Of a stretch of 64,000 bases of DNA, positions 11,633-35,219 are shown piece after piece; position 1 is the first letter of the stretch; every line of letters begins with the position of its first letter. A program made the translations under genes and the position numbers. The DNA comes from Promethearchaeota archaeon. GTDB lineage: Archaea; Asgardarchaeota; Lokiarchaeia; Sigyniarchaeales; SOKP01. The notes beneath the pieces are model-generated. The model was not told the origin of the DNA. It was given only the letters and a program-made list of their open reading frames with translations, and ran no database searches. Location: assembly GCA_048939995.1 (NCBI GenBank), contig JBHLOY010000004.1:32001-96000 (forward strand), in the 5' to 3' direction.

Positions 11633-11781
11633 AACTGCGTCATACTTTTATTGTTTTTCTTCTATTATTTTTGAAAATATTTCAAATTTTTAGTATCTTT
11701 CTAAAATTATTAAATATAATAAATATTCTTTAATATTTTCTATTTTATATTCAATATAATAAATTAAAAATTAATGGGATT

Positions 11782-11937
11782 ATGTCTGAGTGGAAATATA
11801 GACTTGATGAATCAGAATCCGATGATCCTTTTTGTTCAGGATGAGGAATAATTGATGGTGTGATTGCCTGTTTCCGATCTCTCAAGAAAAGACGTATGCA
11901 AACAAAAATAAACTCAAAAAAGAATCTCACAGATTAA
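11782..11937 (+). CDS. Putative 51-aa selenoprotein (CxxU), absent from ORF track
   Basis: MSEWKYRLDESESDDPFCSG-U-GIIDGVIACFRSLKKRRMQTKINSKKNLTD; TGA at 11842-11844, frame open 30 more codons to TAA; SECIS-like hairpin follows. Confidence 0.55.
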
Positions 11938-11945
11938 ATCAAAAA

Positions 11946-11998
11946 TATTAGGATCTAATCTTCAAAGCGATGTGAAAGCTCGAGATTAACGATAAATA
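11946..11998 (+). promoter_or_regulatory. Candidate eukaryote-type SECIS element (AGGA/GA core)
   Basis: UAUU/AAUA helix I; GA 11952-53 opposite GA 11991-92; UAAUCUU/GAGAUUA helix II; unpaired AA; AGC/GCU mini-stem. Confidence 0.5.
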
Positions 11999-12003
11999 AG
12001 TTC

Positions 12004-13389
12004 TTAAAATGGGTTATTAACCCCTTCTCCAACTTTTCTATAAATAAATCCTTTACTCTCAACTATTTTCTTCTCAAAGATATTTCTACCATCAATAATA
12101 ATTGGAGTTCTTACTCGTTTCTTTAAATCATCCAAATCTATATTGTAGTATTCCTTATGATTAGTTGTAAAGATTAAAACATCTGAATCAGATACACATT
12201 CATTAAAATCGTTTGTAAAGCCAGTTAAATTATAATTTTTTGATTTTACATATGGATCATGAGCTACGTAGAAAATATTATGTGAGTGATATTTCATTGT
12301 TAAGGTTTTGATAATATGTTCTGAAGGGGTATTTCGAGTATCATCTGTATTCGCTTTGTAAGACACTCCTAAAAGGCAAACCTTTATATTGTCTACTGGT
12401 TTTTTACTTTCATTCAAAGCATCTTCCATCAATTCTACCATGTGCTTAGGCATGTAATCATTTAGATTTCTGGAATCTGGCATAATTTTTATCATTGCTT
12501 TATTTTTTTTCTGAGTATATTGATTATACCCATATAAAAGTAGCCATGGATCCTTCGATAAACAATGACCTCCAACCCCAGATCCAGGAAAATGCATCAT
12601 CCTATCATCTCTTTGGTTAATTAGCGCGATAATCTCAAAAATATTTCGTCCAAAATCTTCACATAATAATGCCATCTCATTTGCAAATGCGATGTTTATG
12701 TCCCTGTATGCGTTCTCTATACATTTGGTTAGTTCTGCTGTCAAAGTATCAGTGATTTGTAAATCCCTCTTAACTACCTTTCTATATAAGAACTTGGCTT
12801 TTTCATTTGCTTCTTTACAACCCCCTCCAATTACACGTGGAATATCAGTAATAAATTCTATTAATTTCCCAGGCATGCCTCGTTCAAATGAAAATACAAG
12901 ATAAAAACCCTCACTTCTCTTTAATCCACTAACTTCTTCTAATATGGGTTGAACTATATTATCTGTTGTTCCCGGGGCAACTGTGGACTCGATAATGATA
13001 GTGACTCCATTTTTCATATGTTTAGAGATTTTTTCAGAAACTTCTATAAGTGATTCATATCTTGGTATTTTATCTTCAATCTCAACTGGAGTTTGAACAT
13101 CAATTAGAATATAGTCTGCTTCTGAACAGACATCAAATTTATCAGTTACATAGAATTTTTTGTCTCTCACTACTCTACTAATTAAATCATTTAACCCCGG
13201 TTCCTCACCTTCAAAGGGGTTTTTTCCTTCATTAAGCCAATCAATTTTCCATCCTGATCTCATTGACCTTCGTTGAATTCCAACAACATAAAAATCCTCT
13301 ACATCAGCTAACATAACTGCCATAGGGATCCCAACATACCCCATTCCAATAACTACAATTTTAGTGGGCACTTTATGTTCTAACCTCAA
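12004..13389 (-). CDS. Nucleotide-sugar dehydrogenase (UDP-ManNAc/UDP-GlcNAc dehydrogenase, WecC-like)
   Basis: GMGYVG, ESTVAPGTT, ENAYRDINIAFANE, PGSGVGGHCL, YKANTDDTRNTP, IIDGRN. Confidence 0.9.
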   Translation of the reverse strand: MRLEHKVPTKIVVIGMGYVGIPMAVMLADVEDFYVVGIQRRSMRSGWKIDWLNEGKNPFEGEEPGLNDLISRVVRDKKFYVTDKFDVCSEADYILIDVQTPVEIEDKIPRYESLIEVSEKISKHMKNGVTIIIESTVAPGTTDNIVQPILEEVSGLKRSEGFYLVFSFERGMPGKLIEFITDIPRVIGGGCKEANEKAKFLYRKVVKRDLQITDTLTAELTKCIENAYRDINIAFANEMALLCEDFGRNIFEIIALINQRDDRMMHFPGSGVGGHCLSKDPWLLLYGYNQYTQKKNKAMIKIMPDSRNLNDYMPKHMVELMEDALNESKKPVDNIKVCLLGVSYKANTDDTRNTPSEHIIKTLTMKYHSHNIFYVAHDPYVKSKNYNLTGFTNDFNECVSDSDVLIFTTNHKEYYNIDLDDLKKRVRTPIIIDGRNIFEKKIVESKGFIYRKVGEGVNNPF

Positions 13390-34817: not shown

Positions 34818-35219
34818 TTAAAATCTATCCCATGCTGCATGGACAGCTTTACCAGTCAGTTCTATAACTGGTTTCATCTTGTCAGCGGTAGCTAAACCCA
34901 CTTCAGGAGCTATTTTCATTATTGAAGCATGGCTTACATAAACTTTCCCTTTTTCTTCATAGACAACAAAACTACATGGGAATAGCAAACCAACGTTTTT
35001 TGAAACATCTAATGCTCCTTTTGCAAACTCTGGACCACAAGCAAGTATAATAGTATATTTATCATAATCTATTCCTAACTTTTTCTTAAAAATTTCATCA
35101 ATCGATTTAGTTAGCATATGGCTAAAACCTTCTTCAATAATAATTTTCTCAATATGCTGTACTGCTTTATCAAAATCCATATTTAATTCTTTTTTCAATA
35201 TATCAACCATTTCTTTCAC
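34818..35219 (-). CDS. DUF302 domain protein
   Basis: YTIILAC.P..AKGAL...VGLLFPCSFVVYE. Confidence 0.85.
   Translation of the reverse strand: MKEMVDILKKELNMDFDKAVQHIEKIIIEEGFSHMLTKSIDEIFKKKLGIDYDKYTIILACGPEFAKGALDVSKNVGLLFPCSFVVYEEKGKVYVSHASIMKIAPEVGLATADKMKPVIELTGKAVHAAWDRF

Follow-up and report, generated by a model that had tools for sequence, protein, structure and literature searches.

A conserved three-way junction lacking the AUGA/GA core as the probable SECIS of a UGA-containing micro-ORF in a Loki-type Asgard archaeon

The stretch of 64,000 nucleotides (nt) analyzed here (the window) corresponds to C13:32001-96000 in the 3.75-Mb assembly (30% G+C, 98% complete) of a Promethearchaeota archaeon, and contains on its + strand a 51-codon micro-open reading frame (micro-ORF; 11782-11937) with an in-frame UGA. 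The RNA at the end of this micro-ORF (11923-11987, + strand) folds as a three-way junction and is probably its selenocysteine (Sec) insertion sequence (SECIS), namely a variant of the lokiSECIS without the core of that element. The three-helix scaffold is kept, formed by P1, by P2 of 9-11 base pairs (bp) with an 11-12-nt apical loop of signature NNAAANNNUAG, and by the side hairpin P3, and at the base of P2 purine-pyrimidine Watson-Crick or wobble pairs take the place of the AUGA/GA tandem of sheared G.A pairs. This reading follows from the combination of a Sec-using genome, a conserved UGA ORF, a covarying junction, and the loop signature of the canonical elements, and also from the occurrence of GA-less junctions after two other UGA gene families, the narrow range of distances between the UGA and the loop, and a search for canonical SECIS elements that found no other nearby.

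The micro-ORF encodes a Cys-x-x-Sec peptide (MSEWKYRLDESESDDPFCSGUGIIDGVIACFRSLKKRRMQTKINSKKNLTD), in which the UGA at 11842-11844 would specify Sec (U21). A six-frame search recovered it in 99 of the 135 genomes of the taxonomic family, with one match in each genome and exactly one TGA inside every match. In the ortholog alignments, both flanks of the TGA show synonymous-type or wobble changes and the indels are in-frame, while the conserved core of the micro-protein reads C-[ST]-G-U-[GA]-[IM]-[IV]-D-G. Thus, given its distribution in the family, the single in-frame TGA, and the coding-type substitutions on either side of it, the micro-ORF is, on comparative sequence grounds, a genuine gene. 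No Pfam family scored over the cut-off for the micro-protein (the best was DUF3088, E 0.2), and no homologue, either Cys-containing or annotated, was found in a large protein database, as would be anticipated for an ORF that gene callers end at its TGA. The micro-protein is not among the seven selenoprotein families listed for Asgard archaea (PMC4989117; PMC11227280; review PMC13188914).

The host is a Sec-using, Loki-type Asgard archaeon, since its genome encodes SepSecS, a PSTK-like protein, and a SelD whose frame contains a TGA, carries in-frame TGA codons in several VhuD/FlpD and peroxiredoxin-like (Prx-like) genes, and has approximately ten matches to the canonical lokiSECIS pattern (AUGA followed by a stem of nine positions, an A-rich loop of 11-13 nt with a final G, and GA or AA). 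SepSecS is present in 130 of the 135 family genomes and, therefore, a phylogenetic profile against it is uninformative.

When 48 orthologous 3' regions from several genera were aligned (alignment A1) and submitted to RNAalifold, the three-way junction was obtained de novo, and not the eukaryote-type hairpin with an AGGA core that an initial annotation had proposed at 11946-11998. The same junction is the minimum free energy fold of 11915-11995. On the + strand of the window, P1 is formed by AAUCUC (11923-11928), inside the codons for Asn-Leu, and GAGAUU (11982-11987). P2 pairs AGAUUAAAUC (11931-11940), which holds the stop codon UAA (11935-11937), with GAUCUAAUCU (11952-11961), and contains in this genome one A.C mismatch (11937/11955); its 11-nt apical loop, AAAAAUAUUAG, occupies 11941-11951 and includes invariant columns of A1. 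The junction strand J2/3, UCAA (11962-11965), reads UAU, UAA or UUA in relatives, and leads to the P3 hairpin, AGC-GAUGUGAAA-GCU (11966-11980), represented in relatives by GUUC-CGCAA-GAAC or GAAUUC-...-GAAUUC. The last codons and the stop codon of the micro-ORF, therefore, lie within P1 and P2. In general, the stems are AU-rich and the junction strands read AA or AC on the 5' side and UAU, UCA or UAA on the 3' side.

Covariation supports this structure. In A1, 94.6% of the cells are paired, 15 of the 20 pairs have changed on both sides, and 136 cells are compensatory, values that none of 500 shuffles reached, and slid controls were only 27-58% paired. P2, with 9-11 bp, is paired in 96.3% of its cells and shows compensatory changes in 8 of 9 counted pairs, and all six P3 pairs show such changes, whereas the UCUC/GAGA of P1 is nearly invariant (45-47 of the 48 sequences) and only its outer pair, 19-85, covaries, in 8 sequences. 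The P2 loop has A at positions 3-5, U at 9, and G at 11 in all 48 orthologs, and A at position 10 in at least 90% of them. The end of this loop lies 101-121 nt from the UGA, and the loop lies 16-47 nt from the stop codon. A covariance model built from A1 (R1) scores 69.2 bits on 11908-11999 of the window.

The initial annotation had read the same region as a form 2 eukaryotic SECIS, with an AGGA/GA kink-turn core (11950-53/11991-92), a 7-bp helix II, an AA bulge, and an apical mini-stem; GGGA-core variants of SECIS do occur in apicomplexans. All of its letters are present on the + strand where they had been placed: UAUU at 11946-49, AG at 11950-51, the 5' core GA at 11952-53, UC at 11954-55, the helix II strands UAAUCUU at 11956-62 and GAGAUUA at 11982-88, AGC at 11966-68, the loop GAUGUGAAA at 11969-77, GCU at 11978-80, AC at 11989-90, and the 3' core GA at 11991-92. 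The helix can form, at -7.3 kcal/mol, and one genome (G010) shows an apparent compensatory change, A-U to G-C, between its strands (S3 and S4). Nevertheless, as a structure the hairpin is no better than chance. RNAfold gives 11936-12010 -8.4 kcal/mol on the + strand (z = -0.45), and a pattern of its layout (GA, 2 nt, a perfect 7-bp helix, a 15-25-nt loop with AA near its start, the helix, 2 nt, and GA) matches the genome 180 times on both strands of its 3.75 Mb, against 180.6 expected from first-order Markov simulation, with six matches on the + strand of the window alone. A loose eukaryote-style SECIS match in an AT-rich genome, therefore, carries no weight alone. When the complete fold was tested over the 48 orthologs (the helix 11956-62/11982-88, the mini-stem, and a leftover small S1:S2 hairpin), only 73% of the cells were paired, 343 of 500 shuffles matched its covariation, and three of the seven helix II pairs were broken in 14-23 sequences.

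The core of that hairpin fares no better. What was taken for an AGGA core spans the last bases of the P2 loop and the first of a helix ('UAUU-AG' being positions 6-11 of the loop), and the tetramer reads AGAA, AGAU, AGGU, AGGG or GGGA in orthologs. The 5' GA opens the P2 3' strand, where it is Watson-Crick paired with C11940 and U11939, and is replaced by AA, AU, GU or UU in some relatives; the 3' GA falls outside the conserved element, and orthologs have AA, AG, AT or unrelated letters in its place. The initial annotation had itself staked the hairpin on conservation of the opposed GA/GA in orthologous loci, and they are not conserved. Moreover, its helix II, whose strands overlap the 3' strand of P2 and include that of P1, and P2 are mutually exclusive. 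The fold of 11915-11995 favors the junction, at -10.3 kcal/mol versus -7.3 and -8.5 for the AGGA fold, the helices of the junction having pair probabilities of 0.88-0.89 against 0.10 for the AGGA helix. The junction is also the lower in energy in 45 of the 48 orthologs. A form 2 hairpin at this site is, thus, very improbable. Two further expectations of the initial annotation did hold: a conserved SECIS-like RNA without AUGA does lie at the end of a genuine UGA ORF, lending it support, and searches based on AUGA/GA do miss it. Rfam at gathering score returned no SECIS or other credible family in the whole window, and its SECIS families gave no match at E <= 10 in 11780-12060.

The AGGA helix owes its complementarity to the near identity of the P1 and P2-base sequences, which run in opposite orientations. 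It could be supposed, then, that the RNA is a two-state switch between the junction and the alternative S3:S4 and S1:S2 pairings, in which a terminating ribosome, by covering S1, S2, and the loop, would leave S3 free for S4. S1 resembles S3 and S2 resembles S4, so that both pairings are possible, the S3 change in G010 is matched in both S2 and S4, and the UCU/AGA core of the alternative helix is kept in most relatives. Such a switch is, however, decidedly improbable, as the alternative helix does not covary beyond chance, three of its pairs are often broken, the alternative is higher in energy in nearly all orthologs, and no functional need for it is evident.

The likeness to the SECIS elements of the same genome lies in the loop and in the scaffold. 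The published lokiSECIS consists of AUGA, a stem, an A-rich loop ending in G, and then GA/AA (Mariotti et al. 2016 PMC4989117; Huang, Xiao and Zhang 2024 PMC11227280), and Asgard SECIS elements have been described as hairpins, of type I or type II, built around a GA_[G/A]A core (PMC4989117; PMC11227280; PMC13188914). In a gapless alignment of nine canonical elements of this genome (A3), the invariant features are the AUGA, the AAA at positions 3-5 and the G at position 11 of the loop, and the adenine of the 3' GA, and the two loop features are those common to the junction in its 48 orthologs. Moreover, at least 7 of 10 canonical elements can be drawn as P1-AUGA-P2-GA-P3-P1' three-way junctions (C8:7867, C26:44894, C17:73830(-), C17:97629, C17:215786, C17:421779, and C21:23937). 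Their side hairpins are small and GC-rich, with loops such as UGCAA, AGCAA, CGCAA or UGUGA, and the SelD element is followed by CCACC-CGCAA-GGUGG. This scaffold was not found in the papers on Asgard SECIS that were consulted, and a full-text search for SECIS with 'three-way junction' gave no title or abstract concerning Asgard SECIS.

The initial annotation had suggested scoring its hairpin with a covariance model of SECIS elements from this genome. Such a model (R2), built from the nine canonical elements, gave a held-out canonical control 38.2 bits and does not pick out the AGGA hairpin. It aligns 11932-11960, that is, P2 and its loop, as stem-loop-stem, in a local match without the AUGA/GA columns (14.4 bits, E 0.59). 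With its filters off and over the whole window, R2 found no canonical SECIS elsewhere near the micro-ORF. The top R2 match in the window, at 35065-35101 on the - strand (17.5 bits, E 0.09), has an AUGA-stem-GA arrangement with a 7-nt loop and is probably due to chance.

What the junction lacks is the core. Immediately 5' of P2 there is CACA in this genome and CAAG, CAAA, CGAG or similar in relatives, with no AUGA, and P2 is followed by the pyrimidines UU, CU or CC, with no GA/AA, the first of which pairs and covaries with the 5' purine. At the positions of the sheared G.A pairs, A1 has purine-pyrimidine (R-Y) pairs, AU in 16, GU in 16, and GC in 13 sequences at 27-59, and GC in 28 and AU in 14 at 28-58. 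Since covarying R-Y pairs occupy these positions, no kink-turn core is possible at the base of P2, which is Watson-Crick paired, and no conserved opposed GA/GA was found anywhere else in the junction. Kink-turns involving the GAGA of the P1 3' strand or an AUGA before P3 were considered by eye and discarded because their registers do not fit; that AUGA is present in one genus and is not conserved.

The same design follows other UGA genes. The next-best R1 match (25.7 bits) lies in the 3' untranslated region (UTR) of a Sec-containing Prx-like gene of this genome (C17:244144-244596). This gene (..FRSKNUPYAKAH..; region C17:244144-244680 (+), L101:688-781) does not have AUGA..GA and has a conserved three-way junction, and its TGA is kept in the loci of 13 relatives and in the copy of this genome. 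In its junction, the 'GA' at the base of P2 forms covarying Watson-Crick pairs with UC, and P3 carries an invariant UAGCCA loop. The other case is a second unannotated family of UGA micro-ORFs, CYxTSU (M..EE..F[DG]FDD.CY.TSU SLI..WY.RA...), found in relatives (L021:1706-1858, L022:515-667, L023:1736-1882, L033:1647-1811, and L038:1667-1810) and not found in this genome by tblastn. In many relatives, the CYxTSU ORF lies between the first micro-ORF and a downstream WecC-like gene, and has either its own copy of the junction, or one copy in common with the first micro-ORF. Thus, many relatives have a second junction copy for it approximately 370 nt downstream, four loci of another genus, outside the training set, have a single junction after the second ORF (66-78 bits), and in g21-type loci the junction is clear of the stop codon of the first micro-ORF and common to the two UGA ORFs. 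A search with R1 recovers the element from 59 of 71 genomes of the family, and no copy from 19 genomes that belong to three other families of the order.

This recurrence bears on the possibility that the junction is a cis-regulatory or stabilizing RNA of the micro-ORF transcript unrelated to Sec, such as a 3'-end stabilizer, a regulator of termination or read-through, or a protein-binding or localization element, with recoding directed otherwise or independent of any SECIS. The missing GA/GA core, the overlap with the stop codon in this genome, and the weak score with the canonical model would fit such a role, as would the T-runs after the element in many relatives, which place it at the transcript 3' end. 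Nevertheless, a role unrelated to Sec would leave unexplained that the loop signature is that of the canonical lokiSECIS, that both have the same scaffold, that the element follows three different UGA gene families, and that in g21-type loci it stands off the stop of the first ORF and is common to two UGA ORFs, and no other SECIS candidate was found nearby. On balance, such a role is unlikely, although it keeps some weight.

The initial annotation had also cautioned that the stem folds on the minus strand, downstream of a convergent gene (12004-13389, - strand) that it had labelled WecC-like. According to this alternative, the hairpin would be the 3' end or terminator of the WecC-like mRNA, and the stem does fold there (-9.8 kcal/mol, z = -0.81), with a U-run downstream on that strand (11942-46) and the WecC-like stop only 16 nt from the element in this genome. 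However, 77 of 959 paired cells (~8%, summed over pair counts) are G.U, and on the minus strand each of these would be A.C. The position of the element at the micro-ORF stop is constant, whereas the distance of the WecC-like homologue from that stop varies from 69 to 610 nt in the 25 loci that have it downstream, out of 27 with sufficient flank, and the homologue was not found within the locus in the other 2; moreover, copies of the element follow other micro-ORFs that have no WecC-like neighbor. The G.U pairs and the fixed position at the micro-ORF stop, thus, set this caveat aside and make a minus-strand terminator extremely improbable.

Compared with the lokiSECIS, or Asgard eSECIS-like type I element, the junction shares its location directly after a UGA gene of a Lokiarchaeia-type archaeon, a main stem of ~9-11 bp (~9 in the model, 7-15 in a loose version) with an 11-12-nt apical loop, the adenines at loop positions 3-5, the invariant terminal G preceded by A, and the P1-P2-P3 scaffold that the canonical elements adopt in this genome. 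It differs in having covarying R-Y pairs instead of AUGA before and GA/AA after the stem, in starting within the coding sequence and including the stop codon, and in failing the published 5'-GA_[G/A]A-3' criteria. As in form 2 eukaryotic SECIS elements, it lies 3' of the UGA and has an A-rich motif in the apical loop and an extra small stem, but without the RUGA/GA quartet, and the small stem is a separate arm rather than an apical mini-stem on helix II. SBP2 has no known counterpart in Asgard archaea (PMC4989117, PMC11227280).

Other systems are more distant. In euryarchaeal SECIS elements (Methanococcales, Methanopyrus), a GC-rich lower stem of 10 bp and an upper stem of three G-C pairs are separated by an asymmetric GAA/A bulge. 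The junction resembles them as an archaeal element with two stems near a gene end, but it has neither the GAA/A bulge nor the G-C run of the upper stem, and its topology is that of a junction and not of a bulged hairpin. In bacteria, SelB binds the small apical loop of the SECIS. The junction and the bacterial element are alike in lying partly inside the reading frame, so that the translating ribosome must melt the element after use, whereas the junction is located ~80-145 nt past the UGA, not immediately after it, and has another shape. The k-junction, which in the account of Wang et al. 2014 cited in PMC11227280 is a kink-turn elaborated into a three-way junction, has the topology of the canonical elements of this genome, in which a side hairpin interrupts the non-bulged strand after the GA and before the closing helix; the junction described here keeps the three-helix topology without the tandem G.A pairs next to a 3-nt bulge.

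A mechanism can be proposed on this basis. The ribosome would pause at the UGA (11842-44) while the junction, ~80-145 nt downstream, is still folded, and the P2 loop, held on the junction, would recruit a putative Asgard SECIS-reading factor or a Sec-specific elongation factor with Sec-tRNA(Sec). Once Sec had been inserted, the ribosome would read 30 more codons and melt P1 and P2, which it must unwind because the last codons and the stop codon belong to the element. A further protein of possible relevance is the Asgard-specific one, encoded beside genes of the Sec machinery, that Huang et al. 2024 mention. More generally, we lean towards the view that Loki-type Asgard archaea can recode UGA with SECIS elements that have no kink-turn core. 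A three-way junction would then display the apical loop NNAAANNNUAG as the determinant, and the AUGA/GA would be dispensable and interchangeable with Watson-Crick pairs.

Several points weigh against regarding the junction as a SECIS. The 5' AUGA/GA and the 3' GA/AA that define the published models of Asgard and eukaryotic SECIS are absent, and the R2 score of P2 is within background and not significant alone. P2-shaped hairpins number 815 in the genome versus ~700 expected and, therefore, shape alone is uninformative. P1 is weakly tested by covariation because it is almost invariant, and the covariation statistics overstate independence, the orthologs being related. The lack of a Cys-containing homologue makes it impossible to apply the classic test in which the SECIS is lost when Sec becomes Cys. 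No tRNA-Sec scored over the Rfam RF01852 cut-off in the whole genome, where the top match (33.5 bits) is a tRNA-Arg; the Sec trait rests, therefore, on SelD(U), SepSecS, the PSTK-like gene, and the canonical SECIS elements. As ARAGORN listed only ~10 tRNAs genome-wide, many of the tRNA genes may carry interruptions, be atypical, or be missing from the assembly. Finally, Sec insertion at the UGA, the SECIS activity of the junction, and the part of it that would be recognized are inferred from comparative data.

If the junction is indeed a SECIS, several consequences would follow. Asgard SECIS elements have been cited as an evolutionary bridge to those of eukaryotes because of their AUGA/GA kink-turn core, and this core would not be needed by the Asgard SECIS reader, so that the search for the latter would narrow towards something that recognizes the loop or the junction instead of an L7Ae/SBP2-like kink-turn binder. 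The published models that require GA_[G/A]A would undercount Asgard selenoproteins, and some of the genes in the ~15% of Asgard selenoprotein genes in which no eSECIS-like structure has been found would be accounted for by core-less elements. At least two unannotated families of micro-selenoproteins would be added to those known, and the element would constitute a natural series of 'core-swap' mutants for experiments.

Some additional observations concern the distribution of these elements. In genus g12, R1 finds the junction in 4 of 4 genomes (e.g., G043:C51:214461-214550, G045:C2:59253-59342), and the micro-protein query finds a match in 0 of 5; in this genus, conservation may be stronger for the RNA than for the peptide, or the RNA may act for a different ORF. 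Weak R1 matches in the genome of the window (20-25 bits), at C8:5157, C6:43840, C19:73177, and C17:446677, were discarded because no convincing UGA ORF lies upstream. The one at C6:43840-43937 (- strand, 23 bits) has UUAGAUC...AAUUUUAGGAUUUGA in common with the element, and a hydrophobic frame of 25 codons that includes one UGA (MLPLIIMMVIYLIULIFITITKIFV) ends at the corresponding site, although it is not convincing. Further canonical-looking AUGA..GA candidates occur at C16:9821(+), C17:215786(+), C36:9833(+), and C11:426328(-), and the ORF that ends 8 nt before the last of them (..QPDVGCUUEKVKE..) contains two adjacent in-frame TGA codons.

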